Shown: in pieces, positions 1 to 54,182 of the stretch
Numbering within the stretch: position 1 is the stretch's first letter
Layout of the letters: each line of letters opens with the position of its first letter
NCBI GenBank assembly: GCA_964446685.1
Contig: CAYUPO010000007.1
Coordinates: 233 to 64,232, forward strand
Length of the DNA stretch: 64,000 bases
Direction of reading: 5' to 3'
From: an uncultured Gammaproteobacteria bacterium
GTDB taxonomy: Bacteria; Patescibacteriota; Microgenomatia; Daviesbacterales; UBA10151
Notes under the pieces: generated by a model
The model's input: the letters and a program-made list of their open reading frames with translations, nothing else
Databases searched by the model: none
Told to the model about the DNA's origin: nothing
Made by a program: the position numbers and the translations under genes

Positions 1-951
1 ATCGCCTCTGGCTTTGGCAAAACCTTTTCTGACAGCATCGCCTTTTCCTCTGCCTTTTCCCTGATTGATCAGACTAATTTTTCTTTGTTTTCCATATTTT
101 GAAATCACTCGCTGGATCTCTTTTTTTGTATTATCGGATGAATTGCCCTCCACAAAAATAATCTCCGTCCATTTTCCCAGCTGAGGGGTCCATTTAACAG
201 CGTTTTCAATATTACCTTCTTCATTGCGAGCCGGGATAATAACTGAAACTGAATATCTCTTTTTCGTTTCTTCAGGCTTTAATCTTGCTACTAAATATTG
301 CACTAAACAAAGCTGCTTTATTAAAGGGAGTCTGGCTATATACTGATTTATAAAGTCTGATAAAAGCGGAATATAAAATGGCATCAGTAAAAAATTACCT
401 TTTTTAACTACTTCCAGCTGACTTAAATTTAATAAATTCTGAATATCAGTCAAAGATAACCAATTTTGTCTAAGATTAGGAAATTTAAATCCTAATTTCT
501 CTGCTAGTACCATGGCAGGTTCCCATAAAAAGTTATAATAAGTCACGATCACCCGTGTCTCAGCATTTGAGACCTTAGCAATTTTTTCAAAAGCAGTCTG
601 GACATCTGAAACATGACCAATGACATCAGAACAAAGAATATAGTCAAATGTTCCTTTAACTGACAACTGCTCCACATCCTGCACTTTAAAATTTAACTGA
701 GGATGTTTTTTTTGAGCTATCTGCACCATCTGAGGAGAGATATCAATCCCTATTCCCTTTTTGGGACGAACATAAGACAGTAAATCTCCATTCCCAGATC
801 CTACAGCCAACACTGAAGCACCCGAAGGCACAAAAAAAGCACACAGTTTGTGTAGCGACTGATGATAATACCAATTCTTTTTCAGGTAATACTCTCTTTT
901 GTGGGCAAGCTGGTCAAAATGATTTTTTACCGCTTTATTATGCAGATCCAT
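1..951 (-). CDS. Bifunctional class I SAM-dependent methyltransferase (N-terminal) / family 2 glycosyltransferase (C-terminal); 3' end runs off the window edge
   Basis: Manual translation from the ATG (reverse complement of 949-951) gives [15 protein letters not shown]...[15 protein letters not shown] (MTase motif I) followed by [21 protein letters not shown]...[15 protein letters not shown] (GT2 DxD-type N-terminal region). The frame stays open to position 1. Absent from the ORF track because it is truncated. Confidence 0.6.
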
Positions 952-1900
952 GATAATTTTTCAGATACCATTGTATAGTTTTTTTAATACCTGTCTCAAA
1001 AGAGGTTTTAGCTCTAAATCCAAACTCTTGTTCCGCTTTTGTGACGTCCAATTTTCTTCTTGGTTGACCATTAGGTTTACTAGTGTCCCATTTTATCTCA
1101 CCTTTATAACTAAGTGTTTCTTTAATTAGCTCTGTCAAATCTTTAATGGAAATTTCAAACCCTGATCCCAAGTTAATAGGATCATCTTTATGATAATGTA
1201 CTGCCGCTTGAAGTATACCGTCAGCAGCATCCTCCACATAAAGAAATTCTCTGGTTGGGGATCCATCACCCCAGACTTCAATATAAGGTGTTTTTAACCT
1301 CTTAGCATCAACTACTTTTTTAACGAGTGCAGGAATAACATGAGATGTATCTGGATCAAAGTTATCACCAGGTCCATATAAATTTACTGGTAAGAGATAG
1401 ATACCATTAAACCCAAACTGTTGTCTATATGCCTGAGTCTGAACCAACAACATTTTTTTAGCCAATCCGTACGGCGCATTAGTTTCTTCAGGATACCCAC
1501 TCCATAAGTCGGATTCTTTAAATGGAACCGGAGTGAATTTAGGATAAGCACAAATAGTTCCGATACAGACAAATTTTCCAACTTTATTCACCCTGGCTGC
1601 TTCAATCAGTTCTACTCCCATCATCAGATTGTCATAAAACAAAGTTCCCGGCAAATCAAGATTTTTTCCTATCCCGCCCACATTTCCAGCTAAATGAATT
1701 GTGACATCAATATTTTTTGTCACTTTCCTGCAAACATTTTTCTTTCGCAAATCAAATTCCTTAGAGCGGGGTATTAATATATTTTTTGCCTGAACTCCAT
1801 AATTTAATAATTTTTTTACAACATGACTACCTAAAAAACCACTTCCTCCTGTTACAAGTATTTTTTTATCAACCCAATATTGTTTATCTTTATTTGTCAT
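938..1900 (-). CDS. fcl: GDP-L-fucose synthase (GDP-4-keto-6-deoxy-D-mannose 3,5-epimerase/4-reductase)
   Basis: 320 aa. [15 protein letters not shown] Rossmann motif; [16 protein letters not shown] and [20 protein letters not shown] motifs typical of Fcl/WcaG. Confidence 0.8.
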
Positions 1901-1935
1901 AACTTACACACCTGATTTAGATTTTTATCAACCAA

Positions 1936-3066
1936 CTATACCAGAGGTCTGGTAATTTTCTCAATCAATAATCGGCTTTTTTTTGTTGAAATTTCCCACT
2001 TAAACTTAGAAGACCAGGACCTGACACCTTTTGACAATGTTTGATATTTTTTATTATTTCTTAACAGTTCTAAAACCAGATCAGACAACATTTCCGGTCT
2101 ATTTATTTTAGTTAGTAATCCGGTCTTTCCATTAATAATCGTATCTTTCAATCCGGCCACATTATAAGCTACAGTTGGAACTCCCATTAAACCAGCTTCC
2201 ATCACAGTTAGGCCCCATCCTTCCCTGACCGAAGGGTTAATCACCAGATATGATTTCCCCAATAATTCAAACTTTTTGCTTTCACTCACAAACCCCCAAA
2301 ATTTAACCTTTTTCGTTAAACCTAATTCAGCAGTTAAAGCTTTTAAATAAACAATATACTCATCATCATGCTTACCTATTACCCAAAATCTAAAATCAGA
2401 ATTTTGTTTAGAAAGCTTAGAAAAAACTATCAAAGCATCTTCAATACCTTTATCCCTGGCTAAGGCACCTATAAAGGTTATAGTATTTTTATCTTTTTTA
2501 AACTGTATACTTTTTTTAGGACCCATAATTCCATTATGGATAACCGTGATATTTTGTTTAGAAATCCCTATCTCTGCTAATTCATTCTTTGTTGAATCAG
2601 AAACTGTCATAAAAGGTATCTTCAGATAAAACAATTTAAAAATATATGGTTCACAAAAAGCTCCAATTTTTCCCACCAATGTTTGCAATGGCTGAGGCAA
2701 TGGATTATATTTCCACACTTCTTTGGTCACTTCATGAATAAAAGCCAATTTTTTAGTTTTAACAAATAAAGGAGTAAAAAAAGGGATTCCATGAAACTGA
2801 TCTATTACCAGATCAAAGTCTTCTTTATTTTGGAAGAGATACCAGATAAATGCCCAAAACTGGACTGAAATTATTTGCCCACCCTTGCGAATAATATTAA
2901 CCCCATCAATAATTTCCTGAGATTTAGCTCCAGGAAAATAGGAAGTAAATAAACTTACCTTATGGCCGGCTTTAATCCAGGCTTTGGCATGCTCATGTGT
3001 CACGATTTCTGCTCCACCGGCATGTGGATGTTTCGGACCCCTCCAGGAAAAAATAAGAATCTTCAT
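1936..3066 (-). CDS. Glycosyltransferase family 4 (GT-B, retaining)
   Basis: 376 aa. C-terminal EGWGLTVMEAGLMGVPTVAYNVAGLKDTI matches the GT4 EX7E region. Confidence 0.8.
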   Translation of the reverse strand: MKILIFSWRGPKHPHAGGAEIVTHEHAKAWIKAGHKVSLFTSYFPGAKSQEIIDGVNIIRKGGQIISVQFWAFIWYLFQNKEDFDLVIDQFHGIPFFTPLFVKTKKLAFIHEVTKEVWKYNPLPQPLQTLVGKIGAFCEPYIFKLFYLKIPFMTVSDSTKNELAEIGISKQNITVIHNGIMGPKKSIQFKKDKNTITFIGALARDKGIEDALIVFSKLSKQNSDFRFWVIGKHDDEYIVYLKALTAELGLTKKVKFWGFVSESKKFELLGKSYLVINPSVREGWGLTVMEAGLMGVPTVAYNVAGLKDTIINGKTGLLTKINRPEMLSDLVLELLRNNKKYQTLSKGVRSWSSKFKWEISTKKSRLLIEKITRPLV

Positions 3067-3071
3067 ATTTT

Positions 3072-3902
3072 TTATCCAACATTAATCCTAAAATCAAGTT
3101 CAGGATCATACTTCCATTTACGCGCACTTTGATCTGAATAATATTTAAGGATTCGTAATCTATAAAAAACTGCCAAAGTGTCACTAAACATGTAAAAAAG
3201 TGTCCTGATAAACTTCTGACTGGTTAAAACCGAGGAACCGCCAAAATCGAGTTTAATTTCAACCGGTGCTTCATAAATCCGCTTGAATCCTAAATAATTG
3301 GCCACCGATAAAATCTCAATATCAAAAGCATAAGCCTTGACTAAAAGACGAGGCAAAACTTTATCTAAAACTTCTCTTCTAAAAACTTTTAACCCAACCT
3401 GGGTATCTGTTATCTTTAATCCAAAAAGCATTCTTACTACCAGCTGATAGCCAAAAGACATTATTCGTCTTTGCCATGGATAATCAACTTTTGACACCGG
3501 ATGTCTTTTGGATCCGACCATCACATCTGCTTTATACCACTCGAAATGTTCTAAAAGCATCGAAAGACCATTTGGATTTAAATCCATCCCAGAATCAATA
3601 AAAGCAATTATATCTCCCCGGCTTTTTGCCATTCCAAAACGGACAGCATAACCTTTTCCTTTATTGGTTTCATACCCTACAACTTTAACATTGCGGTACT
3701 TTTTTGATATTTTTTTCGCCTTTTGAAAAGTTTTATCAAGTAATCCATCAACAACGCAAATTAACTCAGTTTTATATCTGAGTTTACTAAGTACTGTTCG
3801 TATTCTTTGCAAGTCTTTGTAAATTGTTTTTTCTTGTCTGAAGGCAGGTACAATCACAGAAACTAACCTAATTAATTTCTTGCGCGCTTTACGGGGCTTC
3901 AT
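3072..3902 (-). CDS. GT2 polyprenyl-phosphate sugar synthase-like (DPM1/ArnC-like)
   Basis: 276 aa. VSVIVPAFRQEKTI...CVVDGLLDKT...DSGMD, then a hydrophobic C-terminus. Confidence 0.7.
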   Translation of the reverse strand: MKPRKARKKLIRLVSVIVPAFRQEKTIYKDLQRIRTVLSKLRYKTELICVVDGLLDKTFQKAKKISKKYRNVKVVGYETNKGKGYAVRFGMAKSRGDIIAFIDSGMDLNPNGLSMLLEHFEWYKADVMVGSKRHPVSKVDYPWQRRIMSFGYQLVVRMLFGLKITDTQVGLKVFRREVLDKVLPRLLVKAYAFDIEILSVANYLGFKRIYEAPVEIKLDFGGSSVLTSQKFIRTLFYMFSDTLAVFYRLRILKYYSDQSARKWKYDPELDFRINVG

Positions 3903-3903
3903 C

Positions 3904-5163
3904 TTAATTATCTTTAGACAGATCGCTTATCCGAGCTGCTAAAAAGTATACTGACAGACTGACAAATAATAAAGTAGCAACGCTGACTGAAACCCAGACC
4001 ACCTGTGTGATAGTCTGATGAAATAAATTAATCCCAATCAACTGCAAAACAGCCGCAACTAAGGGAAATATCACTACTTTATTATGATTAACAGATAAAA
4101 AGAAATTTATAAATAACCCGCATAAGGCTAAAAATCCAGTAAACAGTGCATACGGCACTAGAAGTCCAATTCCGGCAAAATATTTCTCCCCGTATAACAG
4201 AGAAAGTACAAACTGAGGAAAAAGAAAATACATCAAAATAACACCTGATACTACAGCCGCTGTTGCGCCAATACTAAGTAAAAACATCGAAACATATTTT
4301 TCACCGGCAACATATCTTTTGGCAACCAATGGAAACATTACTGTTGAAACAGGAGCACTGGCAAATAAAATAATTTTACCGAGAGTAGAAACAGCAGCAA
4401 AAATTCCGGCTTCAAAACTGGAGAAAAAATGTTTGACGAGTACCAGATCAATTGTCATCAGCGAAGTCATAGCTACAGTTTGAATGAGTACAGGTAATGT
4501 AAAATTAAAAATATTTTTAGTATGTACTTTTTCAGTTGTCTGTATTTCCCGGTAATGCTTTAAAAAGAAAAATCCAGCAAGCCAGCCCGTAATAATAGCA
4601 ATTACTAAACCAACCATTGCCCCCATTACTCCAAAACCAAGCATTACAAACAATACGCCAGCAACAAGTTTCATTCCGGTTTCAGAAATAAGACCGATTA
4701 CCACCAAATGAAACTTGATCAATCCCTGTAGAACAGACCGATATAAATAAGCTGGCAGTCCAAACAGAAAAGAAACTGCAATCAGAATAATTCCTAAAGT
4801 ATGCGGAGTATTTAAATAATCAGCTAAAAAAGGTGAAAATGCAGCAGTACCCAGTGCTAATACAACCGACATGTAAAAAACCGGTTTAGTAAACCATTTC
4901 AGATAGGCAGCTGCTTCCTGATCATTTTTTGATGAAGCCACAAATTTAATAATTACTGTTCCAAACGACAATGGAACAACCGACAAAAGCCCAATCAGAG
5001 AAAAGAATGCCGATAACTCGCCATAAGAAGCAGGCCCCAGCAGTCTGCCCATTAATAAATGATAGAGATAATTGATTACATTAGTACTATTTGTACCAAT
5101 AATCATAATAAAACTTGAGGAAAATAAAGGATGTGATATGGCCCGTTTAATTATTTTTTTCAT
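3904..5163 (-). CDS. Oligosaccharide flippase, MOP superfamily (Wzx-like polysaccharide biosynthesis protein)
   Basis: About 12 predicted TM segments; the N-terminal ...GRLLGPASYGELSAFFSLIGLL motif is typical of Polysacc_synt. Start moved to the internal ATG (MKKIIKRAI), which forms an ATGA stop-start overlap with the upstream gene at 5160-5163. Confidence 0.6.
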   Translation of the reverse strand: MKKIIKRAISHPLFSSSFIMIIGTNSTNVINYLYHLLMGRLLGPASYGELSAFFSLIGLLSVVPLSFGTVIIKFVASSKNDQEAAAYLKWFTKPVFYMSVVLALGTAAFSPFLADYLNTPHTLGIILIAVSFLFGLPAYLYRSVLQGLIKFHLVVIGLISETGMKLVAGVLFVMLGFGVMGAMVGLVIAIITGWLAGFFFLKHYREIQTTEKVHTKNIFNFTLPVLIQTVAMTSLMTIDLVLVKHFFSSFEAGIFAAVSTLGKIILFASAPVSTVMFPLVAKRYVAGEKYVSMFLLSIGATAAVVSGVILMYFLFPQFVLSLLYGEKYFAGIGLLVPYALFTGFLALCGLFINFFLSVNHNKVVIFPLVAAVLQLIGINLFHQTITQVVWVSVSVATLLFVSLSVYFLAARISDLSKDN

Positions 5164-6413
5164 GCCACCCAGTACCCCCTTATAAATAAAATCGTAAAGA
5201 AACCCAGCATCAGACCCATTAACATAAACATAATTATCTGGATTATTCTTGGTAATTTTTCTATTAACAAAGCCCAAATAATAAATACCGGAAATACTAC
5301 CAAAACATAGCGCGATCCGGATGAAAAACTACCCTGAATCGTTGGCAATAAGATACTGGCTAAGGCATAAAATAAATATGAAATTCTAATTTTTTTAAAG
5401 TAGCCTACAATCACAAGTAATACAAAGGAAACAGTACTTACAAACTCAAGCAAAAAAGAGGCTAAAAATGTATTCACTTCCTGATAATGGATCAGAATAT
5501 TGAGATATCTGTAGACCACCTGAGGAAATAATATTATTCCTTTACCTCTGTGCTCCCCTATGATTGACTGAAGATTATAAAATGCCAGTGGATCACCAAC
5601 ACTCCACCATAAATAAGCCATATAAAGAAGCAATCCTCCTGGAATCAGCAATAAAGGAAAACTTTCTTTTAAAGATTTTTTTGACAGCCATAGATCAATT
5701 ATCAAAGACAAAAATAATAGCACACCAAATACTCTGGTAAATGATGCCAAAAACCCACAAACAGCAGCCAGCCAAAAATTATTCTTGCGGTAAAAATAAA
5801 ATGTTGCCACCGATAAAAAAAGAAACAAACTTTCGGTATAAAATGCAGCAAAGAAAAAAGAAGTCGGAAATAACAGTAAAAGCAATAAAGTCCGCCAGGC
5901 TATTTGACTAGAATAATCAAGTCTGGCAAGTTTAAAAAGCAAATATAAACTTCCAAGAAAACAAAGATGTGATATAACGAGGCCACTAAGAACTGCAGAC
6001 AAAAAATCAGTCTTTGAAAAAAATATTCCTATATGCACTAATAATGGATATAAAGGGAAAAAAGCCTGCTCCAGACTTTGATATCCTCTTAGCGCAATTG
6101 ATAGATAATGCTCACCATCATAATTTGCCCAGGGCATCAGATAAAAAAACTGGTTATACAACTGATAACCACCACCTAAAAAATTTCTGGAAAAAAGGGG
6201 CACAAAGATAAATCCCACTAAACCTACCACAAATAAAAATATCCTCCAGACGAGGAATAATCCACCTATTATCAGTATTTCCGGAGAAAGTTTATTTGTG
6301 AAGCGTAGTACCTCGAAAGCTTGCTTCGAGGATGAAGCGAGCAAAGAACTTGCCTTTAGAATACCTCTTAGCTTGCTGTTAGGTAGTTCATTTTTGAGAA
6401 ATTGCATATTCAT
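5160..6413 (-). CDS. Polytopic membrane protein, putative GT-C-type glycosyltransferase
   Basis: 417 aa and highly hydrophobic. Its N-terminus overlaps the 3' end of the upstream GT4 by 26 bp, so the true start is uncertain. Confidence 0.5.
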   Translation of the reverse strand: MNMQFLKNELPNSKLRGILKASSLLASSSKQAFEVLRFTNKLSPEILIIGGLFLVWRIFLFVVGLVGFIFVPLFSRNFLGGGYQLYNQFFYLMPWANYDGEHYLSIALRGYQSLEQAFFPLYPLLVHIGIFFSKTDFLSAVLSGLVISHLCFLGSLYLLFKLARLDYSSQIAWRTLLLLLLFPTSFFFAAFYTESLFLFLSVATFYFYRKNNFWLAAVCGFLASFTRVFGVLLFLSLIIDLWLSKKSLKESFPLLLIPGGLLLYMAYLWWSVGDPLAFYNLQSIIGEHRGKGIILFPQVVYRYLNILIHYQEVNTFLASFLLEFVSTVSFVLLVIVGYFKKIRISYLFYALASILLPTIQGSFSSGSRYVLVVFPVFIIWALLIEKLPRIIQIIMFMLMGLMLGFFTILFIRGYWVA

Positions 6414-7425
6414 AAACTTTTACGGTATCCTGCGCTGTTTTTTCCCAGGAAAATCGGCTTAAATTTTCAGTTCCTTTTTTTATCAAACCTTTTCTGTATT
6501 CGGCTTCTTGCAACTTAATCACCGCATCAGTGATCTCTGATCCGACAGCTGAATCTACTATTATACCGCCATCACCGACGACCTCTTTTAATGATGAATT
6601 ATTGCTGGTAATAACAGCCGTTTTACATGCCTGTGCTTCAAGGACAGGTAATCCAAAACCTTCATAATGAGACACCAATATTAAAGCCTGTGCAGCATTC
6701 ATCAGTCCTACTAAATCTTCATTAGGAATAAATCCCAGTATTTTAACTCCAGGATGATTTGAATACTTCTCTTTAAATTCTCTGAAGGGATTCAGCTCAG
6801 GATGATTTAAATCGCCTTTTGTTTCAAAACCACCTCCCACTAATACCAAAGGGACCTCTGCATCAATCACAGCCTGCGTCATTCTAACAAGATTCTTATT
6901 CCAGTTAACTCCTCCAGTATAGATGACAAAATTTTTCGGCAATTGGTACTTTAAACGTATGCGCTCTACTTCAGGAAGGGGAAGCGGTTTAAAATGATCC
7001 GCTTGAGACAAATATACGGTAAATACTTTTGCTTTCGGCAGATTAAAAACTTTGATGGCATCCTGAGTGGAAGTCTTGGAATCCGTAATAATCGCTTTGA
7101 CTTTTCTCAACGATAATTTTTGTCTTAGTAAATTAACTTTCCCTTTAAGCCCTGATGGATAATGAGTTGGAAATAAGAGCGGTATCACATCATGTATAGT
7201 AACAACTGTCGGGATATGAGAATTAACATTTAGTGTAGGACGAAAGAAATCAAAAAAAGGGAAATGAATTATATCCGCCTCAATATTTTCATTTTTATTT
7301 TCCAGAATACACACTTCCCAATCAGTATATTTTCGCAAAGCTTTAATCAGATTTTCTGTATAAAAACCAATTCCCCTCCCCTTACTCTGACTATCCATGG
7401 CAGAAATATCGATTGCTACTTTCAT
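6388..7425 (-). CDS. Glycosyltransferase family 4
   Basis: 345 aa. EGFGLPVLEAQACKTAVITSNNSSLKEVVGDGG C-terminal GT4 motif. Confidence 0.8.
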   Translation of the reverse strand: MKVAIDISAMDSQSKGRGIGFYTENLIKALRKYTDWEVCILENKNENIEADIIHFPFFDFFRPTLNVNSHIPTVVTIHDVIPLLFPTHYPSGLKGKVNLLRQKLSLRKVKAIITDSKTSTQDAIKVFNLPKAKVFTVYLSQADHFKPLPLPEVERIRLKYQLPKNFVIYTGGVNWNKNLVRMTQAVIDAEVPLVLVGGGFETKGDLNHPELNPFREFKEKYSNHPGVKILGFIPNEDLVGLMNAAQALILVSHYEGFGLPVLEAQACKTAVITSNNSSLKEVVGDGGIIVDSAVGSEITDAVIKLQEAEYRKGLIKKGTENLSRFSWEKTAQDTVKVYEYAISQK

Positions 7426-45739: not shown

Positions 45740-46237
45740 ATGTTACTTAGTTCATCTGATTTAATCTATTCATCGTCTCTGATATCAAAAGCCTTTTTTT
45801 GGGCTAATATTGACAATACAAATACCTCAAACAAACAGTTTAAAGTTTTTTTATATCCAAATAGGATTTCTATTGGTTCTGTTGAACCACAAAACTCGCT
45901 GATGAATCCTGGAAACGAAACTTCTACATTTACTGAAGAAAAAACAATTCTTATTAGTGATTTAAAAGAAATCCAAATATTACCAAATTCAGATATATTT
46001 ACCCGAACTTATATAATTTTTAATAACAATGAAATTAAAAAAATAAATTGGTTTACTTCTGAATTAACTGATTTTCTGTCTAAATTAAATCCACTTTTAC
46101 CAAAGAAAGTAAAAATAACTAATACAACTATTCAACAGGAAAAAATTAAAAATAAAATTAAATTTGGTTTCTCAATTTTGGGATTATTACTTGTAATATC
46201 AGTTATAACCTACTTTTACTTTAAGCTATTTATTTAA
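45740..46237 (+). CDS. Hypothetical protein with C-terminal TM anchor
   Basis: 165 aa. Asn/Ile-rich soluble region, then ILGLLLVISVITYFYFKLFI. Start is adjacent to the stop of the preceding gene. Confidence 0.35.
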   Translation: MLLSSSDLIYSSSLISKAFFWANIDNTNTSNKQFKVFLYPNRISIGSVEPQNSLMNPGNETSTFTEEKTILISDLKEIQILPNSDIFTRTYIIFNNNEIKKINWFTSELTDFLSKLNPLLPKKVKITNTTIQQEKIKNKIKFGFSILGLLLVISVITYFYFKLFI

Positions 46238-47540: not shown

Positions 47541-48473
47541 ATGAAGAAAGTATTAATTACTGGCGTTAATGGTTTTGTTGGACAACACCTACTCTCAGTC
47601 TTAAAAGAATATTCGGTAATCGGTTTAACCCATGGTGGAGAATTATCTAACAGTCAAAATCAGGTATTTCATTCAGGAAATATTTTAGACAACCATTTTT
47701 TGGAGGAGATCATCGCCAGATACGAACCTGAATATATTGTTCATCTAGCAGCCATTGCTCCCACCAATTATAAAGATGCAGAACAGGTTTTTAAAATTAA
47801 TTTATTAGGTACAAATAATCTTTATCAGGCTGTCATCAATCTGAAATCCAAAATCTTAAATCCAAAAATTCTTTATATCTCCTCCGCCGAAGTCTATGGA
47901 AAAACCAATAATCCGGAAAACATCACCGAAGACTCACTACTTAACCCACTTAACTATTATGGCAGCAGCAAAGTTGCCGCTGACAGACTGACATTTCAAG
48001 TATCCGTCAGCCATGGCCTAAATACCGTCATAGTCAGGCCTTTTAACCATGCCGGTCCTGGTCAGGGTTTAGGATTTTTTGTTCCCGATATGTGTTCCCA
48101 AATTAGTGAGATAAAAAAAGGGACAAAACCTCCAGTTATTTCCGTCGGAAATCTTGAAAGCACCAGAGATATATCTGATGTCAGAGATGTAGTAAATGGA
48201 TACAAATTATTAATGGAAAATGACACTACCCCAGGAGATATATTTAATATCTGTTCTGGAAAAGGAATAACAATGCAGGAGTTATTAAATAAACTCATTG
48301 CTCATGCTGGTAAAGAAATAGAAATCCAATCAGATCCTGAAAAAATGCGTCCATCAGACAACCCTATCTCAGTTGGAAATCACGACAAAATAACCAACCA
48401 ATTCAACTGGAATCCCACCCACAACCTAGATCAAACATTAGAAGATACTCTCCAATATTGGCGAAATAAGTAA
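47541..48473 (+). CDS. NAD-dependent epimerase/dehydratase (SDR); GDP-4-keto-6-deoxy-D-mannose reductase (Rmd)-like
   Basis: 310 aa. MKKVLITGVNGFVGQHL Rossmann motif and YGSSKVAADRL (YxxxK). Lies directly upstream of gmd on the same strand. Confidence 0.6.
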   Translation: MKKVLITGVNGFVGQHLLSVLKEYSVIGLTHGGELSNSQNQVFHSGNILDNHFLEEIIARYEPEYIVHLAAIAPTNYKDAEQVFKINLLGTNNLYQAVINLKSKILNPKILYISSAEVYGKTNNPENITEDSLLNPLNYYGSSKVAADRLTFQVSVSHGLNTVIVRPFNHAGPGQGLGFFVPDMCSQISEIKKGTKPPVISVGNLESTRDISDVRDVVNGYKLLMENDTTPGDIFNICSGKGITMQELLNKLIAHAGKEIEIQSDPEKMRPSDNPISVGNHDKITNQFNWNPTHNLDQTLEDTLQYWRNK

Positions 48474-48501: not shown

Positions 48502-48653
48502 GTCATTGCGAGCGAAATTATTAGGAATTAACGCGCGGCAATCTGTATTTCAGAATCAACTAAGTTACAAGGTTCATTCCTGGTTGCGAGATTGCTTCGT
48601 CACTACGTTCCTCGCAATGACGGTCACCGTCTTGCTCGTTCCTCGCAATGACG
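48502..48653. repeat. Palindromic intergenic element, copy A (GTCATTGCGAGCGAA ... TTCCTCGCAATGACGG, right terminus duplicated)
   Basis: 11-bp perfect terminal inverted repeat GTCATTGCGAG/CTCGCAATGAC. Internal GCGAGATTGCTTCG arm and GACGGTCACCGTC hairpin. Lies between the Rmd-like gene and gmd. Confidence 0.7.
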
Positions 48654-48726: not shown

Positions 48727-49770
48727 TTGACTTTACCTCAGGAATATTTTAAGGTAATTGCAGTCATGTCAAAAACAGCAGTTATCGTTGGTATCACCTC
48801 TCAGGACGGCTCTTATCTTGCCGACTTACTTTTAGAAAAAGGCTATACCGTTGTTGGTACTATCCGCCGGTCAACCAATTTTTATCATCCCAATATTTCT
48901 CATCTTTTAGGGAAAGTAATTATTGAAGCAGCTGATCTGACAGACTCAACTTCATTAGAAGAAGTCATCAAAAAACATCAGCCGGATGAAATTTACAACA
49001 TTGCAGCTCAATCAGTTCCGGCAGACTCCTGGTCACATCCTTTTTACACTGGTGAAGTCACAGCACTAGGTGTTGTCAGGGTTTTGGAAGCAGCCCGCAA
49101 ATTTGCCCCTCACGCTAAAATTTATCAGGCCACTTCCCGGGAAGTTTTTGGTAATATTGAAGCCGAATCAGCTACTGAAGAAACACCACTGGATGCCAAT
49201 AATCCTTATGGAATTGCCAAAGCCTATGCCCATATGATGATTGGTTGTTACCGGGAATCATATGACATGTTTGCCTGTGGTGGATACCTTTTTAACCATG
49301 AATCACCTAGAAGATCTCTTCATTTTGTAACAAGAAAAATCACAGCCGGTGTCGCCTGCATTAAAAATGGCGTCAAAAACCCTCCTTTAAATGAGTTAGG
49401 TGAACCATTGGTCGATGCAGATGGCAAACTACATTTAGGACTTTTAGACGCCAAAAGAGACTGGGGATACGCCAAAGAATACGTAGAAGCTATGTGGCTA
49501 ATGCTACAACAGGATAAACCCCAGGATTTTGTGATTGGTACAAACACCGCCTACACAGTTAAAGATTTCTGTAAAGCGGCCTTTTCCGAAGTTGGTCTGA
49601 ACTGGGAAGATCATGTAGTATCCAACCAAAAATTAATGCGCCCAACCGAGATCAAAGAATTAAAAGGCGACGCGACCAAAGCCAAACAAATCCTAGGCTG
49701 GGAACCCAAAACCAGTTTCGAAGACCTAGTAAAAATAATGGTCCAAGCCGACCTCGAAAGATTTAAGTAA
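48727..49770 (+). CDS. gmd: GDP-mannose 4,6-dehydratase
   Basis: 347 aa. TAVIVGITSQDGSYLADLLLEKGYTVVGTIRRSTNF matches the Gmd N-terminus, and the overall length is right. Confidence 0.85.
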   Translation: MTLPQEYFKVIAVMSKTAVIVGITSQDGSYLADLLLEKGYTVVGTIRRSTNFYHPNISHLLGKVIIEAADLTDSTSLEEVIKKHQPDEIYNIAAQSVPADSWSHPFYTGEVTALGVVRVLEAARKFAPHAKIYQATSREVFGNIEAESATEETPLDANNPYGIAKAYAHMMIGCYRESYDMFACGGYLFNHESPRRSLHFVTRKITAGVACIKNGVKNPPLNELGEPLVDADGKLHLGLLDAKRDWGYAKEYVEAMWLMLQQDKPQDFVIGTNTAYTVKDFCKAAFSEVGLNWEDHVVSNQKLMRPTEIKELKGDATKAKQILGWEPKTSFEDLVKIMVQADLERFK

Positions 49771-49778: not shown

Positions 49779-49964
49779 ATGCCTCGTCTTCAAATACTTG
49801 GATTAGTAATTATCATTTGTTCTGTATTAGTACTCGGTATACAGTTGGGACCACTAGCAAATGGCGAAATAACTTTGGCTGAATATTTTAAAGCGACCTG
49901 GCCTAGCCTTATACCGTTAGCAATTGGAATTTCAATAATTTCGGGCAAGTTTAAGAAGAGTTAA
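49779..49964 (+). CDS. Small two-TM membrane protein (hypothetical)
   Basis: 61 aa with two hydrophobic helices; starts 9 bp after the gmd stop. Confidence 0.3.
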   Translation: MPRLQILGLVIIICSVLVLGIQLGPLANGEITLAEYFKATWPSLIPLAIGISIISGKFKKS

Positions 49965-50842
49965 TTTATTTTTATTTGTAGAAATTCCTGAATTCCTTCT
50001 TTATTTGATTTTAAAATTTCAGTTCCAAATTTTTCTTCAAATTTTTTGACTGACATCCAGCTGTTATGAGGTCGAGGTGCGATTCTTCCGGCGTTAAATT
50101 CGGCGAATTTAACTGGTAATATCTTACTGTTATCCAAATTGGATTGCAGAGCTACTTCTTGTGCAAAATCGAAAGGGGTAATACTGTCAGATGAAGCAAT
50201 CTGCCAGATGCCGCCGGCTTTTTGATCCATGATCTTCTGAAAAGCTCTGACTGCAAAGTCTACAAAAACTGGTGTTATCTGTTGATCTTCTATCGCTTTT
50301 ATCTCTTTACCTTCTTTTAGACTATCCAAGAAAAAACGGGCAAAATCCTTTCTTTTTTCAAAGACAGCTGAATACGGCATCTCCGGACGGACAATCGTAA
50401 AGTTTGGATCAACTGCTAAGACAAACTCTTCGGCCTGTCTTTTGGTTTTGCCATACCAATTGACTGGGTTTGGTGCATCTTCCTCTGTATAAGGAGAATC
50501 AGATTTCTGACCATCAAATACATAGTCTGTTGAAACATGCACTAAATGCTTCCCTGACTTTTGGCATTCCTGAGCCAAAATTTGCGGGGTTAGCGAGTTC
50601 AGCCGATAGACAACCCCACCTTTATCTTCATTTTCATTCTGGCAGTTATCAACATTAGTGATAGCAACTAAATTTAAAACCATTTCGGCATCAGAACCAG
50701 CCAGATATCTGGCAATTTCTTTTTCATTAAGCAGATCAAGATCATCATGTGAAGGAGAATCAATAGTAAATGCATCCTTAGTAAGTTCTCTAAAACGAGA
50801 ACCTACCAAACCACTCCCACCTAATACAATTATTTTTTTCAT
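49961..50842 (-). CDS. rfbD: dTDP-4-dehydrorhamnose reductase
   Basis: 293 aa. MKKIIVLGGSGLVGSRF...VHVSTDYVFDG...YGKTK motifs of RmlD. Confidence 0.8.
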   Translation of the reverse strand: MKKIIVLGGSGLVGSRFRELTKDAFTIDSPSHDDLDLLNEKEIARYLAGSDAEMVLNLVAITNVDNCQNENEDKGGVVYRLNSLTPQILAQECQKSGKHLVHVSTDYVFDGQKSDSPYTEEDAPNPVNWYGKTKRQAEEFVLAVDPNFTIVRPEMPYSAVFEKRKDFARFFLDSLKEGKEIKAIEDQQITPVFVDFAVRAFQKIMDQKAGGIWQIASSDSITPFDFAQEVALQSNLDNSKILPVKFAEFNAGRIAPRPHNSWMSVKKFEEKFGTEILKSNKEGIQEFLQIKIN

Positions 50843-50869: not shown

Positions 50870-51120
50870 GTCATTGCGAGCGAAATAACCAAGAATAAAA
50901 GGCGAAGCAATCTCGCGTCCTAGAATTACCATTGTAATAAAGTTAACTCTTGGCAACAGATTGCTTCGTAGTTCGTTCCTCACTCCTCGCAATGACGGTT
51001 CCCGTCTTGCTCACTTTGTTCACAATGACGGTTCCCGTCTTGCTCACTTTGTTCACAATGACGGTTCCCGTCTTGCTCACTTTGTTCACAATGAGCAAGC
51101 TCTCGCTACGCGATGACGGT
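50870..51120. repeat. Palindromic intergenic element, copy B (between rfbC and rfbD), carrying an internal tandem repeat
   Basis: CGTCATTGCGAGCGAAAT...GAAGCAATCTCGCG...AGATTGCTTCGT...CCTCGCAATGACGG, followed by 3 x 33 bp and CGCGATGACGG. Confidence 0.75.
50988..51086. repeat. Perfect 3 x 33-bp direct tandem repeat (CACAATGACGGTTCCCGTCTTGCTCACTTTGTT), no spacers
   Basis: Units 2 and 3 are identical; unit 1 begins CGCAATG. Each unit contains the hairpin GACGGTTCCCGTC. Confidence 0.85.
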
Positions 51121-51653
51121 TAAAGAGAGGCTTTGTATTCTAATAAACTTGGATTTTTCTGGTCTTTATCTGACAAAAGCGGATTTTCTACCGGCCAATC
51201 AATTCCAAGCTCAGGATCATTCCACATTACTCCTGTTTCCGCACCGGATTTGTAATACTGATCTACCTGATATTCATAGACAGCCTGTTCTGACAAAATC
51301 AGATATGAGTTCCCTATTCCCGCCGGCATAAAGACCTTAACCCGGTTGTTATCACCAATCTCTAAAGAAATATGCTTACCAAAAGTCTGTGAATCTTTTC
51401 TTAGATCGACCAGGGTTATAAACACCCTGCCAAATGGCACATAAATCATCTTATCCCAGGGAGCAATGTGAATTCCTCTTAAAACATCTTTTTGTGAATA
51501 AGCATGATTTTCCTGAACATGCACCCATTTTCGACCCAAAGCTTCTTCAAATTCATTTCTTCGCCATGGCTCACGGAAAAAACCTCTCTCATCTTCAAAA
51601 GTTTGTCCGCCTTCTATTATTAAAATACCTGGTATGTCGGTTGTTTTAATCAT
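51120..51653 (-). CDS. rfbC: dTDP-4-dehydrorhamnose 3,5-epimerase
   Basis: Start moved to the internal ATG giving MIKTTDIPGILIIEGGQTFEDERGFF (canonical RmlC N-terminus). The ...WNDPELGIDWP motif is present. 177 aa. Confidence 0.8.
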   Translation of the reverse strand: MIKTTDIPGILIIEGGQTFEDERGFFREPWRRNEFEEALGRKWVHVQENHAYSQKDVLRGIHIAPWDKMIYVPFGRVFITLVDLRKDSQTFGKHISLEIGDNNRVKVFMPAGIGNSYLILSEQAVYEYQVDQYYKSGAETGVMWNDPELGIDWPVENPLLSDKDQKNPSLLEYKASL

Positions 51654-51748
51654 ATTAATAATGTAATTCTCGACTTCGCTCGAATAATATTTATTGTTCG
51701 ACCTTGTAAGCAAAGCTTGCCTGTTGGCTATAGCCAACACTTGGAGAA

Positions 51749-52759
51749 CTACTTTTCTTCCTCAAATCCTTTCTGAGCACTTCGATCTACATTAGGCCTA
51801 TTTGTTTTGAGTGGTTTCCACCACCACTCGTTGTCTTTAAACCAATCAACTGTTATCTGCAGCCATTCTTCAAAATTATGCTCTGGCTGCCAGCCTAGTT
51901 TCTGCAGTTTAGATGAATCAATAGCATATCTAAAATCATGCCCCAGTCGATCTTCCACATATTCAATCAAAGATTCGTCCTTACCCAACATCTTAAGCAG
52001 CATCTTAGTTACTTCAACATTCTTCTTGGACTCACCTGACACACAATAAGTCTGCCCCACCACCCCTTTTTCCAAAACCAAATCAATTGCCCGGCAATGG
52101 TCATCGACATACAGCCATTCTCTGATATTTTCACCTTTACCCATCAGTGGCACTTTTTGATCTTCCAGTAAATTAGTAATAAATCGCGGAATTAATTTCT
52201 CCGGATCGTGGAAGGGCCCAAAATTATTGGCACAATTTGTAATTGTCATCGGCAGTCCATAAGTATCATGGTAAGCTCTGACTAAATGATCACTGCCAGC
52301 TTTTGAGGCAGAATATGGTGTGTGAGGATCATATTTAGTTTCTTCGTTAAATGGCAGATCGTGTTCACCAAGTGAACCAAACACTTCATCAGTCGATACG
52401 TGATGAAACCTTTTAACTTTGTTCTTTAAAGCCTGCTGCAATAAAACAGCGGTGCCATTTACATTGGTTTTTACAAAAGCCATTGGATCAAGAATTGATC
52501 TATCAACATGTGATTCAGCTGCAAAATGTACTACTACATCGACTCCATTCATCGCCTCTGCCACATCATTTACATTAGTAATATCCCCTCGCAAAAACCG
52601 ATACTTTGGATTTGATTCTAGATCTTTCAAAGACTCAATATGTCCGGCATAAGTCAGAGCATCAAGATTGACCACTTCATCATCGGAGTGATTTTTTAAC
52701 CAATATCTAACAAAGTTAGATCCAATAAAGCCGGCACCACCAGTAATTAGCAATTTCAT
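51749..52759 (-). CDS. rfbB: dTDP-glucose 4,6-dehydratase
   Basis: 336 aa. MKLLITGGAGFIGSNFVRYWL...YSASKAGSDHLVRAY (YxxxK). Confidence 0.85.
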   Translation of the reverse strand: MKLLITGGAGFIGSNFVRYWLKNHSDDEVVNLDALTYAGHIESLKDLESNPKYRFLRGDITNVNDVAEAMNGVDVVVHFAAESHVDRSILDPMAFVKTNVNGTAVLLQQALKNKVKRFHHVSTDEVFGSLGEHDLPFNEETKYDPHTPYSASKAGSDHLVRAYHDTYGLPMTITNCANNFGPFHDPEKLIPRFITNLLEDQKVPLMGKGENIREWLYVDDHCRAIDLVLEKGVVGQTYCVSGESKKNVEVTKMLLKMLGKDESLIEYVEDRLGHDFRYAIDSSKLQKLGWQPEHNFEEWLQITVDWFKDNEWWWKPLKTNRPNVDRSAQKGFEEEK

Positions 52760-52830
52760 CTTGTTTCCTTATAACGGCTTTTCGAGCTATCGCTCTTAAA
52801 GCCGGCACCACCAGTAATTAATAATTTCAT
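52756..52830 (-). other. 24-codon upstream mini-ORF (MKLLITGGAGFKSDSSKSRYKETR*) whose first 11 codons duplicate the rfbB N-terminus and whose TGA overlaps the rfbB ATG (ATGA)
   Basis: The 33-bp segment 52798-52830 near-duplicates 52728-52760. Reading the minus strand gives ATG AAA TTA TTA ATT ACT GGT GGT GCC GGC TTT AAG ... AGA TGA. Confidence 0.5.
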
Positions 52831-52912
52831 AATATTTTTCGAACGATAGTGAGAAATTTCCTAAAAAATAAAGAATTTTCTCGGATACCCTCGAAAAATA
52901 TTTAACAAATCT

Positions 52913-53770
52913 TCATTCAAGATTCATCAAATATTTTCCATACCCACTTTTTAACAAAGGTTCAGCCAGTGTTTGTAGCTGCTCTTTTGTAATAAATCCT
53001 TTTCTAAATGCCACCTCTTCAATACAACCAATCTTTAACCCCTGTCTCTCCTCTATCACCTGCACAAACTGCGAAGCCTGAGTCATGCTGGTAAAAGTTC
53101 CAGTGTCCAGCCAGGCTGTTCCTCTATCTAGCAAACTAACTTTGAGCTGACCCAGCTTTCTGTAAGCATCCAAAACAGAAGTAATCTCCACTTCTCCCCT
53201 GGGAGAAGGCTCTACATCTTTGGCAATCTGAACCACCTGGTTATCAAAAAAATAAAGCCCGGCATTAGCGTAATTTGATTTTGGGTTTTCTGGTTTTTCA
53301 ACAATCGATAAAACATTCATCTCTTTATCAAATTCATAAACTCCATATCTTTCAGGATCATGAACTGGAGCCGCAAAACCAACCCCTCCTTCAACATGCA
53401 AAAATTGAGCCAGCTGTTCACCCATCCCATAACCATAAAAAATATTATCTCCTAAAATCATCGCTACTTTATCTTTTCCGATAAATTCAGCTCCTACAAT
53501 AAACGCATCAGCTAAACCTCTTGGAGAGTCTTGCACTTTATATTCAAATTTACAACCAAGCTGGGAACCATCACCCAACAACTGCTGAAAACGGGAAACA
53601 TCCAAAGGTGTCGTAATAATCAATATTTCTTTAATTCCTGCCAACATTAAAGTTGACAAAGGATAGTAAATCATTGGTTTATCATAAATAGGCATCAGCT
53701 GTTTACTGATAGCTTTTGTCAGAGGATAAAGACGAGTACCTGACCCGCCAGCTAATATAATACCTTTCAT
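52913..53770 (-). CDS. rfbA: Glucose-1-phosphate thymidylyltransferase
   Basis: 285 aa. [46 protein letters not shown] is canonical RmlA. Confidence 0.85.
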
Positions 53771-53782
53771 AATTGTGTAATC

Positions 53783-54067
53783 TTAGCTCATTACTCCTAA
53801 TATAAGAAGAAAGGCTAAGCTTCCTACCAAAATATACTCAAAATACGTTCGAAATGTCAAACTTTTATCCATATAGTGATGCAAATAAGACAGGGCAAAA
53901 TACAAAATTACTGTAGTCGCAGCCAGTTTAAGCTGATAGGCATTATTTTCCGGATGAGTAAAAGACAGCACCACAAAACTGGCACAAAGAGGCAGAAATA
54001 GCAGATTCATCAGATGTTGGGTTATAAATTTATGCTTCATATAGAAATAACAAATTCCAAATAACAA
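53783..54067 (-). CDS. Small 3-TM membrane protein (hypothetical), first gene of the rml operon
   Basis: 94 aa and hydrophobic; stops 12 bp before the rfbA start. Confidence 0.4.
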   Translation of the reverse strand: MLFGICYFYMKHKFITQHLMNLLFLPLCASFVVLSFTHPENNAYQLKLAATTVILYFALSYLHHYMDKSLTFRTYFEYILVGSLAFLLILGVMS

Positions 54068-54182
54068 ATTTCAAACAATATCAAAATTCAAATATCAAAA
54101 ATCATAACCTATGGTTTGAGTATTTAAGTTTTTTACTTTTAATTTGTTTGTCATTTGTTGCTTGTTATTTTGAATTTTCATC

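Follow-up and report, generated by a model that had tools for sequence, protein, structure and literature searches.

A 54-kb gene cluster with 19 putative GT-C glycosyltransferases in Candidatus Daviesbacteria as a candidate assembly line for an extracytoplasmic glycan

Results

Layout of the glycan cluster

The subject of this study is a cluster of glycan-related genes on contig CAYUPO010000007.1 (GenBank assembly GCA_964446685.1), of which the forward-strand positions 233 to 64,232 were analyzed; this whole stretch of 64,000 nucleotides (nt) is referred to as the window, and all coordinates are window coordinates. The listing of open reading frames (ORFs), together with translation of the end frame, revealed 40 tightly packed genes (g00 to g39) at positions 1 to 53,770, with a coding fraction of 97%. 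The genes lie predominantly on the minus strand, many neighbors overlap by 4 to 8 nt, and the cluster contains operon-like co-directional runs, e.g., the one that includes the overlapping genes g23 and g22. A previous reading of the sequence alone (the sequence-only reading) had placed a glycosylation island at positions 1 to 54,100; nearly all genes of this interval are indeed glycan related, but the last of them ends at 53,770, and the cluster continues past the left window edge, which cuts g00. Rightward beyond 54 kb, unrelated housekeeping genes begin.

Nineteen polytopic proteins of the GT-C type

Transmembrane (TM) segments were counted in a hydropathy scan, families were assigned from Pfam gathering scores and NCBIfam, and paralogy was established with BLASTP. 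The cluster encodes 21 polytopic proteins, and subtraction of two flippases of the MOP/Wzx type leaves exactly 19, in agreement with the earlier estimate of about 19 glycosyltransferases (GTs) of the GT-C type. They have 7 to 13 TM segments each, and their genes fill 32 kb of the 53-kb locus. Fourteen of them exceed the gathering score of a Pfam family of the GT-C clan; the other five (g14, g20, g21, g22, and g24) lack a passing Pfam match and were assigned by paralogy, profile, or fold. The genes are as follows:

g05, 5160-6413, minus strand: PIG-V-like GT-C, 9 TM segments (Pfam Mannosyl_trans2, 27.2 bits; cutoff, 22.4)
g08, 8285-9979, minus strand: PMT_2 GT-C (Pfam PMT_2; 35 to 54 bits for g08 to g13)
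g09, 9976-11652, minus strand: PMT_2 GT-C (Pfam PMT_2)
g10, 11727-13451, minus strand: PMT_2 GT-C (Pfam PMT_2)
g11, 13405-15150, minus strand: PMT_2 GT-C (Pfam PMT_2)
g12, 15150-16874, plus strand: PMT_2 GT-C (Pfam PMT_2)
g13, 17002-18753, minus strand: PMT_2 GT-C (Pfam PMT_2)
g14, 18744-20042, minus strand: PIG-M/GT87-like GT-C (no Pfam match; BLASTP to g21, E 2e-10)
g15, 20057-21328, minus strand: GT87 (formerly DUF2029) GT-C (Pfam GT87, 27.1 bits; cutoff, 25; profile A5 to PIG-M, 5e-8)
g18, 23392-25767, minus strand: YfhO-type GT-C (Pfam YfhO, 87 bits)
g20, 27043-28716, plus strand: GT-C with an ArnT/STT3-like fold (structure model and Foldseek; BLASTP to g29, 1e-15)
g21, 28750-30123, minus strand: PIG-M-like GT-C (profile A3)
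g22, 30120-33485, minus strand: 1,121 amino acids (aa), DUF3863/CE4-like domain plus GT-C (AlphaFold model, Foldseek, hhalign)
g24 and g25, 34934-38318, minus strand: PTPS_related (PF10131) GT-C pair (g25, Pfam, 40.6 bits; g24 via g25)
g26 and g27, 38371-41377, minus strand: PMT_2 GT-Cs (Pfam, 37 and 77.5 bits; DE after the first TM helix)
g29, 42169-43677, minus strand: PMT_2 GT-C (Pfam, 36.6 bits)
g31, 44533-45738, plus strand: PIG-V/PMT-like GT-C (Pfam PMT, 24.2 bits; cutoff, 22.7)

The family breakdown of the sequence-only reading (six PMT_2 proteins, DUF2029-like proteins, a pair with an IPCRW motif, YfhO, and a 1,121-aa fusion) is borne out by Pfam, profile, and fold matches. The six tandem PMT_2 paralogues g08 to g13 (8285-18753) share 27 to 34% mutual identity and an invariant DE after the first TM helix. 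The products of g14 and g21 are mutual paralogues, and their family profile A3 matches the solved GPI mannosyltransferase 1/PIG-M (E 3e-9) and ALG6 (E 0.004), while g24 and g25 share 37% identity (E 3e-106), an HDD after the first TM helix, and the IPCRW motif. The previously proposed ArnT-like nature of g31 was not retained; since it aligns collinearly with g05 and shares the motifs NYDGxxY and FPLYP with it, it is better called PIG-V-like.

In the AlphaFold models, g20 and g22 form helical bundles that match GT-C folds. For g20 (predicted local distance difference test [pLDDT] score of 86.4), the 27 best PDB matches in Foldseek are all GT-C enzymes, including STT3, ArnT (TM scores of 0.54 to 0.57), ALG12, ALG9, DPY19, Emb, and Pmt4, and transporters appear solely at E>0.1 and a probability of <0.2. 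An hhalign comparison connects g20 with the PMT_2 array (85%), and its profile A4 has no match among PDB sequences. Profile searches against PDB sequences were likewise empty for g05/g31 (A6) and for the six PMT_2 paralogues (A2), including solved PMT or ArnT proteins; where these searches were empty, the GT-C status is based on Pfam, fold, or paralogy. No cluster protein matches MIR or PMT_4TMC at E<=0.01. Since both domains and any sequence match to solved PMTs are lacking, the PMT_2 proteins fall outside the strict PMT/GT39 family.

In all 19 proteins, the first TM helix of the domain is soon followed by an acidic residue, which lies in a loop that is expected to face outward according to the topology. 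The motif is DE in g08 to g13, g26, g27, and g29, DQ in g20, DD in g24 and g25, a single D in g14, g15, g18, and g21, YDG in g05 and g31, and GHD605 in g22; in the family alignments A1, A2, A3, A5, and A7, these acidic residues do not vary. Fold models and the position of the putative catalytic acid are thus in line with the GT-C assignment. An identity as transporters or permeases was considered for the unassigned membrane proteins and rejected, since paralogy, profile, or fold identified all five as GT-C; throughout the cluster, the two expected MOP flippases are the only membrane proteins that the profile searches assigned to a transporter family. GT-C enzymes act at the extracytoplasmic face and use polyprenyl-(pyro)phosphate-linked donors. 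Such donors would also serve the 19 proteins described here, as suggested circumstantially by the four to five DPMS/ArnC-like synthase genes (DPMS, dolichol-phosphate mannose synthase) in the same locus.

The g22 fusion protein and its family

The 1,121-aa protein g22 has no match of its own in Pfam or NCBIfam, and no Pfam GT-C model recognizes its family. Its model (pLDDT, 80.8) comprises an N-terminal signal anchor, a beta/alpha barrel at residues ~28 to 450, and a helical membrane GT-C domain at residues ~480 to 1121 with a small C-terminal domain. The barrel matches 3lm3, a DUF3863 "putative glycoside hydrolase/deacetylase" (Foldseek E 2.9e-11; TM score of 0.58 normalized by target length), as well as several deacetylases of carbohydrate esterase family 4 (CE4; Foldseek E 1e-6 to 1e-3). 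At the fold level, it is a seven-stranded beta/alpha barrel like 3lm3 and the NodB deacetylases, and Pfam DUF3863 is weakly matched in 10 of 28 family members. Invariant residues of this N-terminal domain are D72, E97, D181, D228, D248, and E274-N-D276. The membrane part finds DPY19, PglB, AftA, and ArnT in Foldseek; residues 648 to 1031 are linked by hhalign to the PMT_2 paralogues (89% probability), which is indicative of distant homology, and the motif WGPNGHD605xxWH, invariant in 28 homologues, sits where the catalytic loop is expected. The fold matches bear out the idea of a 1,121-aa fusion, which consists of a DUF3863/CE4-like extracytoplasmic domain and a GT-C domain.

Full-length homologues of g22 show 45 to 98% identity, and the few named ones belong to records of Candidatus Daviesbacteria or Patescibacteria. 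When the membrane domain was used as the query of an exhaustive search, 1,152 representatives were obtained at 50% clustering, 902 of them with E<=1e-10. Among the best 150 representatives, about one quarter are ~1,000 to 1,160 aa long and the others are stand-alone proteins of ~520 to 680 aa. Since long relatives are common and the three that were examined all carry the same N-terminal domain, the fusion is real and recurrent. Records named Daviesbacteria contain the full-length form, as do some of Blackburnbacteria and Shapirobacteria; in Woesebacteria, Amesbacteria, other Microgenomates, and again Blackburnbacteria, the membrane domain is found as a stand-alone protein. An 8.8-kb Logan contig (P0381) harbors a single ORF of 1,639 aa that combines a g23-like MOP flippase (40% identity to g23 over the full length), a DUF3863-like domain, and a GT-C.

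Cytoplasmic glycosyltransferases, flippases, and nucleotide-sugar genes

The remaining genes of the cluster encode enzymes of the GT2 and GT4 families, the two flippases, one small membrane protein, and the enzymes of nucleotide-sugar synthesis:

g00, 1-937, minus strand: partial gene, S-adenosylmethionine-dependent methyltransferase fused to the N terminus of a GT2 (NCBIfam methyltransferase and GT2; BLASTP to g30, g03, and g28)
g01, 938-1900, minus strand: Fcl-like short-chain dehydrogenase/reductase, GDP-L-fucose synthase (NCBIfam NF047922, 277 bits, under the cutoff of 500; Pfam Epimerase)
g02, 1936-3066, minus strand: GT4 with GT-B fold (Pfam Glycos_transf_1, 120 bits)
g03, 3072-3902, minus strand: GT2, weakly PgfS/PpgS/ArnC-like (29 to 30% identity to g30 and g28)
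g04, 3904-5277, minus strand: MOP/Wzx-type flippase, 12 TM segments (Pfam Polysacc_synt_3 and Polysacc_synt)
g06, 6388-7425, minus strand: GT4 (Pfam Glycos_transf_1, 84 bits)
g07, 7422-8282, minus strand: GT2 of the g07/g17/g19 paralogue group (DAD motif at residue 82)
g16, 21321-22406, minus strand: GT4, core gene (Pfam)
g17, 22524-23354, minus strand: GT2, core gene (Pfam)
g19, 25984-26889, minus strand: GT2, core gene, the most conserved of the cluster (Pfam)
g23, 33478-34932, minus strand: MOP/Wzx-type flippase (Pfam Polysacc_synt_3, 194 bits); the last 8 nt overlap the start of g22
g28, 41391-42149, minus strand: DPMS/GtrB/ArnC-like GT2 without TM segment (PDB sequence matches; DMD motif at residue 95)
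g30, 43789-44502, minus strand: ArnC/DPMS-like GT2 (NCBIfam ArnC best at 69 bits, under cutoff; 33% identity to g28)
g32, 45740-46237, plus strand: 165-aa protein with a C-terminal TM segment (no family in Pfam and NCBIfam scans)
g33, 46255-47439, minus strand: GT2 with GtrA/DPMS TM domain, archaeal DPMS-like architecture (Pfam GtrA_DPMS_TM, 79 bits; Glycos_transf_2, 72 bits)
g34, 47541-48473, plus strand: Rmd-like GDP-4-keto-6-deoxy-D-mannose reductase (PDB 2pk3, 6e-55; 6x3b, 1.6e-43)
g35, 48727-49770, plus strand: Gmd, GDP-mannose 4,6-dehydratase (Pfam, 356 bits; TIGR01472, 343 bits, under the cutoff of 415)
g36, 49961-50842, minus strand: rmlD (Pfam RmlD_sub_bind, 198 bits)
g37, 51120-51740, minus strand: rmlC (Pfam dTDP_sugar_isom, 165 bits)
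g38, 51749-52759, minus strand: rmlB (Pfam GDP_Man_Dehyd/Epimerase, 256 bits)
g39, 52913-53770, minus strand: rmlA (Pfam NTP_transferase, 237 bits)

DPMS, GtrB, and ArnC make polyprenyl-phosphate sugars. According to their closest characterized relatives, g28, g30, g33, and, weakly, g03 are predicted to belong to the same class of synthases. The seven best PDB sequence matches of g28 are DPMS (5mlz, 3.5e-18), GtrB, and ArnC enzymes; the best NCBIfam matches within the group are PgfS, ArnC, DPhHxTase, and PpgS, all far under the equivalog cutoffs, and AglJ and a dolichyl-phosphate hexose transferase are matched weakly. A DXD motif is present in g28, g30, and g33, and a canonical one is absent from g03. 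The GtrA_DPMS_TM domain occurs solely in g33, and g28, g30, and g03 lack predicted TM segments, as do the catalytic subunits DPM1 and Ppm1, which rely on partners. Four or five DPM1/ArnC-like GT2s were found, compared with five counted previously; next to these four proteins stands the partial methyltransferase-GT2 fusion g00. Instead of the four other GT2s proposed, three were found (g07, g17, and g19), whereas Pfam matches verified the three GT4s (g02, g06, and g16) and the two Wzx flippases (g04 and g23). Among solved structures, g19 comes closest to GmaR and SunS/ThuS, glycosyltransferases that modify proteins and peptides, with weak matches (1.7e-8 to 1e-4) over the generic GT-A core, and g16 weakly matches MshA and PglH in the PDB search. 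No GT of the cluster received an equivalog-level NCBIfam assignment.

With respect to the nucleotide sugars, rmlABCD is complete, with four adjacent genes and strong Pfam matches. NF047922 is by far the best NCBIfam match of g01, and the two Rmd structures stand well ahead of the next PDB match of g34 (1e-33). The predicted Gmd plus Fcl and Gmd plus Rmd gene sets are both complete, with the single gmd gene (g35) common to the two GDP routes, so that all three deoxyhexose pathways named in the sequence-only reading were recovered.

Conservation of the cluster in Microgenomates

A scan of species-representative genomes with the g22 family retrieved 242 loci, and all window proteins were compared by tblastn with those loci whose sequences were fetched; the 39 loci at the species level in which the g22 homologue has 8 kb or more on either side, named Daviesbacteria, Woesebacteria, Amesbacteria, Blackburnbacteria, or Microgenomates, formed the informative set. 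A syntenic core of DPMS-like GT2, PMT_2, PTPS_related, MOP flippase, g22-type GT-C, GT2, GT2, and GT4 was observed in all 39 loci, invariably with the MOP flippase immediately upstream of the g22 homologue. Counterparts of g19 were present in 39 loci, of g17 in 37, of g16 in 35, of g28 and g26 in 32 each, of g25 in 30, of g29 in 27, and of g18 in 26, and the number of GT-C-like genes per ~22 kb had a median of 7 and a range of 3 to 10.

The orders g29 to g15 (locus L001) and g13 to g01 (locus L084) are reproduced on a 308-kb JGI metagenome contig (3300043411, Ga0451708_0000001), whose matched proteins are 57 to 88% identical to those of the window, except for g18 with 49%. The highest values were found for g19 (88%), g17 (84%), g03 (83%), and g07 (81%), most others ranging from ~57 to 77%. 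Each of the genes g08 to g12 has a positional orthologue in L084 with 68 to 76% identity, compared with 29 to 35% to the other paralogues; at the edge of L084, the place of g13 is likewise taken by a PMT_2 gene, the sixth there. Since positional orthologues are far closer than paralogues, the PMT_2 duplications are old and every copy has been kept; this 1:1 orthology implies distinct, maintained functions. L084 also contains an orthologue of g05 and one of g04 with 421 aa; the true start of g04 is probably downstream of the listed TTG. Five genes that are absent from the window are inserted between the g13 and g12 orthologues (L084, 631-4734), among them one for a membrane-anchored protein of 718 aa, a long stretch of which is rich in Pro, Glu, and Tyr; this protein could be a substrate for glycosylation. 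Between the orthologues of g04 and g03, L084 has an extra gene (17937-19490) for a 517-aa protein with 8 TM segments and a motif of the g20/g29 type (FDMSRD...GPATS...YYY), so the number of GT-C genes differs even among close relatives. Several NCBI metagenome-assembled genomes (MAGs) and Logan contigs, the latter with proteins of 98 to 100% identity, show the same gene order, and a scan of metagenome contigs with g10 alone found no relative.

The comparative genomics hence documents that the order and core of the cluster are kept in independent assemblies and across the sampled Microgenomates. An assembly chimera was rejected, since the gene order recurs in independent assemblies at 57 to 88% protein identity. 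A mobile or horizontally acquired island was rejected as well, given the wide synteny in Microgenomates, the native, uniform GC content of 34 to 40% across the whole window, and the absence of tRNAs and of integrase-like Pfam matches among the window proteins (Rfam matches were also absent from the window); the term "island" is therefore not meant to imply horizontal acquisition. Those homologues of g22 and g09 that carry a name are Candidatus Daviesbacteria, in accordance with the earlier guess of an organism from the candidate phyla radiation (CPR). Many of the third-party MAG records that carry the cluster (among L005 to L082) are titled "uncultured Gammaproteobacteria," "Pseudomonadales," or "Clostridia bacterium," which is probably placeholder or wrong taxonomy. 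A complete Daviesbacteria chromosome (L017) has a size of 820,589 bp; if the genome size here is similar, the 54 kb would represent about 6 to 7% of the genome, by inference the disproportionate share of coding capacity that had been suspected.

Flanking genes and repeats

The right flank encodes a CAP-domain protein, a short TsaB-like ORF, a MacAB-like exporter of the HlyD/ABC/FtsX type, RF2, FtsE, FtsX, and a PcsB/M23-like hydrolase. The MacAB-like exporter with its HlyD, ABC, and FtsX-permease genes (55556-58838) and the cell-division module FtsE-FtsX-PcsB/M23-like hydrolase (61324-64000), located on either side of RF2, are ordinary genes. The TsaB-like ORF (55153-55494, minus strand, 113 aa) covers positions 30 to 85 of the 264-position TsaD-family profile and represents either a truncated gene or a TsaB of unusually small size. 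An ORF of 94 aa directly upstream of rmlA at the cluster edge (53783-54067, minus strand), with ~3 TM segments judged by eye and no Pfam match, may encode a small partner protein in the membrane or a subunit of a flippase, but may also be spurious. The GC skew ranges from -0.1 to -0.24 over 1 to 54 kb, where the genes lie on the minus strand, and is ~0 past 56 kb, while the gene strand turns to plus at ~55.5 kb; this change may mark a divergence point of replication or transcription. An unusual strand compositional disparity is announced in the title of a published Microgenomates genome paper (PMC7143001).

A family of intergenic repeats, which look REP/MITE-like (repetitive extragenic palindromic sequence/miniature inverted-repeat transposable element) and have no Rfam match, is located at 48502-48653, 50870-51094, and 56663-56784, with the common motifs GTCATTGCGAGCGAA and GATTGCTTCGTCAC..CGTTCCTCGCAATGACG. 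Three tandem 33-nt units are found at 50987-51094 between rmlD and rmlC, and inverted arms at 48538-48599 and 50903-50964 bracket the gmd-rmlD segment. In addition, the 41 nt around the rmlB start codon (52726-52766) are repeated 71 nt upstream in the rmlA-rmlB spacer (52797-52837) with 88% identity.

Discussion

Overall, the combination of enzyme classes and gene order suggests that the locus encodes an extracytoplasmic, lipid-linked glycan assembly line, which would work mostly at the outer face of the cytoplasmic membrane and would be a chromosomal, vertically inherited trait of Candidatus Daviesbacteria (Microgenomates, CPR). We consider this reading probable on balance, if only modestly so. 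RmlABCD, Gmd plus Fcl, and Gmd plus Rmd would be the source of dTDP-L-rhamnose, GDP-L-fucose, and GDP-D-rhamnose (or a related 6-deoxyhexose), from which, as from other nucleotide sugars, the GT4 enzymes g02, g06, and g16 and the GT2 enzymes g07, g17, and g19 may assemble short glycans at the inner membrane face, with polyprenyl phosphate as the carrier. The MOP/Wzx transporters g04 and g23 would carry the lipid-linked intermediates across, g28, g30, g33, and probably g03 would make polyprenyl-phosphate monosaccharides, and the 19 GT-Cs would extend, branch, or transfer the glycan outside with lipid-linked donors, each of the old, 1:1-conserved paralogues presumably catalyzing its own distinct linkage. 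The putative central enzyme is g22, which would act on the export of g23 as a polymerase, a ligase, an oligosaccharyltransferase-like enzyme, or the first extender, and whose DUF3863/CE4-like domain may trim or deacetylate the glycan outside. As the product, a glycoconjugate of the cell envelope is most likely, i.e., a wall polysaccharide or lipoglycan and possibly also glycoproteins; it would be a basic component of the envelopes of Microgenomates, to which Daviesbacteria most likely add a lineage-specific elaboration.

Several points weigh against such an assembly line. The scores of g05, g15, and g31 are just above the Pfam cutoffs (by 1.5 to 5 bits), and no ORF in the 64 kb matches the Pfam families Bac_transf, Glycos_transf_4 (MraY/WecA type), Wzy, or Wzz. 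The start and end of the pathway are thus inferred, since a phosphoglycosyl transferase (PGT), a Wzy polymerase, and a chain-length regulator were not found in the window; with 97% of the cluster coding, nothing large is hidden there, and the three functions could be encoded elsewhere in the genome. The sugar of each polyprenyl-phosphate donor and the acceptor are not readable from sequence. Furthermore, MOP transporters flip lipid-linked glycans or, as described for the MATE flippase of a three-component system, the monosaccharide donor (PMC11127046); by analogy with the latter, the MOP proteins of the locus could flip monosaccharide donors instead of oligosaccharides. Finally, the triple fusion P0381, a singleton cluster on one 8.8-kb contig, is either a Rosetta-stone fusion that joins flippase and GT-C or could be a frameshift artifact at the 8-nt gene overlap.

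The enzyme classes are all known, and by analogy the design appears closest to the mycobacterial assembly of lipomannan/lipoarabinomannan (LM/LAM) and arabinogalactan and to the lipid-linked pathways of the endoplasmic reticulum (ER), of glycosylphosphatidylinositol (GPI) synthesis, and of haloarchaea. In mycobacteria and corynebacteria (PimA/PimB' of GT4, Ppm1, PimE/GT87, MptA-C, EmbA-C, and AftA-D), assembly follows the same logic: a lipid-linked glycan is begun in the cytoplasm by GT-B and GT-A enzymes, flipped, and extended outside by many GT-Cs with polyprenyl-phosphate sugars made by DPMS-like synthases. The GT87-type g15 and the fold matches to AftA and Emb add to this resemblance. Unlike in mycobacteria, no Pfam Arabinose_trans/Emb-type family and no genes for decaprenyl-phospho-arabinose were detected at the locus, and the GT-C families present (PMT_2, PTPS_related, PIG-M/PIG-V-like, YfhO, and a new one) together with the deoxyhexose supply point to a different chemistry. 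The comparable number of GT-Cs in Mycobacterium tuberculosis is spread over 4.4 Mb, whereas the 19 described here are gathered in one 54-kb stretch of a genome that is probably smaller than 1 Mb. The overall architecture is also common to the ER lipid-linked oligosaccharide and GPI pathways (Alg GT4s, Rft1, DPM1/ALG5, ALG3/9/12/6/8/10, PIG-M, PIG-V, and STT3) and to haloarchaeal Agl (AglJ, AglS, and AglB), a likeness reflected in the profile and fold matches to PIG-M, ALG6, ALG9/12, STT3, and DPY19 and in the Pfam match to PIG-V. In contrast to those pathways, the similarity is remote (best E 1e-9) and no member of the STT3/AglB family was detected, no search for a WWDYG-type motif having been made; the resemblance is one of design by analogy and not pathway orthology.

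Classical Wzx/Wzy clusters come to mind for g01 to g07 (fcl, GT4, GT2, MOP flippase, polytopic protein, GT4, and GT2) and the rml genes, which resemble an O-unit cluster; unlike in those, no PGT, Wzy, or Wzz gene was found in the 64 kb and the polytopic g05 scores as a PIG-V-like GT-C, so the locus is not a classical Wzx/Wzy cluster. With the PMT/GT39 enzymes and their Ppm1/DPM1 partners, it shares PMT_2/PMT Pfam matches, a DE in the first extracytoplasmic loop, and an adjacent DPMS-like gene, whereas MIR and PMT_4TMC are absent at the locus and the names "GT39" or "ArnT-like" given to homologues by NCBI and JGI reflect similarity only. The components of the three-component systems (GtrA/GtrB/GtrC, CsbB-YfhO, ArnC-ArnT, PgfS/PgfM, and GT136 of PMC11127046), i.e., synthase, flippase or GtrA-type domain (g33), and GT-C, including the YfhO type, are all present in the locus too; those systems employ one GT-C for one side-chain sugar, in contrast to 19 GT-Cs of at least six sequence families that lie with Leloir GTs in conserved runs.

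Two biological alternatives to an envelope-glycan assembly line deserve consideration. The locus may serve mainly protein glycosylation, with g22 as an oligosaccharyltransferase that would move the g23-flipped glycan en bloc to surface proteins (S-layer, pilins, or secreted enzymes) and with the PMT_2 GT-Cs as protein O-glycosyltransferases of differing targets that use polyprenyl-phosphate sugar donors. The protein-modifying enzymes DPY19 and PglB are among the best solved fold matches of g22, yet AftA and ArnT, which act on glycan or lipid acceptors, match about as well, and fold-level similarity does not reveal the acceptor. Likewise, the PMT_2/PMT matches and the conserved DE motif, as in PMT, are offset by the lack of MIR or PMT_4TMC domains in the cluster and of any sequence match between the six-paralogue profile and solved PMT or ArnT, and the relationship of the core GT2 g19 to GmaR and SunS is a weak one within a generic fold core. 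The Pro/Glu/Tyr-rich membrane-anchored protein inserted within the GT-C array of the L084 relative would fit a substrate role, but the window itself encodes no candidate acceptor protein. Outside Actinobacteria, one bacterial GT39 enzyme is reported to glycosylate secreted proteins (PMC6151902). We regard a predominantly protein-directed system as unlikely, albeit not far-fetched.

The genes could also constitute largely independent decoration modules in the style of GtrABC, CsbB-YfhO, or ArnC-ArnT, which would attach individual sugars as side chains to a polymer synthesized elsewhere and create diversity against phages or for host recognition, with no ordered assembly line. GT2 and GT-C genes are indeed neighbors (g28 with g27 and g29, g30 with g29 and g31, and g33 near g31), a YfhO-type enzyme (g18) is present, GT-C numbers vary (the additional g20/g29-like gene in L084; 3 to 10 GT-C-like genes per locus), and the three-component principle is widespread (PMC11127046). 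However, 4 to 5 donor synthases face 19 GT-Cs, the GT-C paralogues are ancient and conserved 1:1 instead of being in rapid turnover, and the cytoplasmic GT4/GT2 enzymes and MOP flippases sit in the same operon-like runs. Since synteny of the core extends over the sampled Microgenomates lineages, a housekeeping pathway fits better than variable decoration, and we judge independent modules to be quite improbable. That the feature is not real, i.e., an assembly chimera or a set of miscalled transporters or permeases, has a probability close to nil: 5 of the 19 proteins lack a passing Pfam match, but these five were resolved as described, transporters entered the g20 fold search only beyond E>0.1 and below a probability of 0.2, the GC content is uniform, and the gene order is repeated in the 308-kb JGI contig, NCBI MAGs, and Logan contigs (98 to 100% identity).

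Returning to the lipid-linked assembly line, its initiation could either depend on a PGT encoded elsewhere in the genome or, by analogy with haloarchaea, take place on polyprenyl monophosphate through a DPMS-like GT2. N-glycosylation in Haloferax starts in the latter way. The absence of a PGT from the 64 kb would fit such a start, and the weak AglJ matches are compatible with it but no proof. A more specific, and in our view doubtful, proposal combines these elements into a Microgenomates-wide, essential envelope glycoconjugate that is made by an ER- or haloarchaeal-like route undescribed in bacteria. In this scheme, a DPMS-like GT2 would start on polyprenyl monophosphate without a PGT, Leloir GTs would extend the chain, a dedicated MOP transporter would flip it, and it would be handed over directly to the flippase-coupled g22 family as polymerase or oligosaccharyltransferase; in Daviesbacteria, the capture of a deacetylase/hydrolase domain and the expansion to 19 GT-Cs would result in a large, defined, deoxyhexose-containing glycan.

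In the searched literature on glycosyltransferases of CPR and Microgenomates, nothing specific and no paper characterizing the cluster product was found, and the density of 19 GT-Cs, the flippase-coupled core across the sampled Microgenomates, and the g22 GT-C family with its DUF3863-like fusion were not described there. A Microgenomates genome paper mentions 29 glycosyltransferases in passing (PMC7143001), and a 2024 preprint on Saccharibacteria pili calls glycosylation "unexplored" (PMC11623550). The g22 family, with ~900 representatives at E<=1e-10, is a GT-C group that is unmodeled in Pfam and NCBIfam, and the g23-g22 flippase/GT-C pair and the DPMS-like g28 are concrete targets for future work. 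With its 19 diverse GT-Cs, the locus provides a natural set of enzymes for structure-function studies, and it is also a bacterial comparator for the ER-type assembly of lumenal glycans. These observations are relevant for the CPR/Patescibacteria as a whole, which account for a large part of bacterial diversity, live mostly attached to other cells, and have an essentially unknown surface chemistry; the conservation of the core in such reduced genomes argues that its product is central to envelope integrity or host contact.

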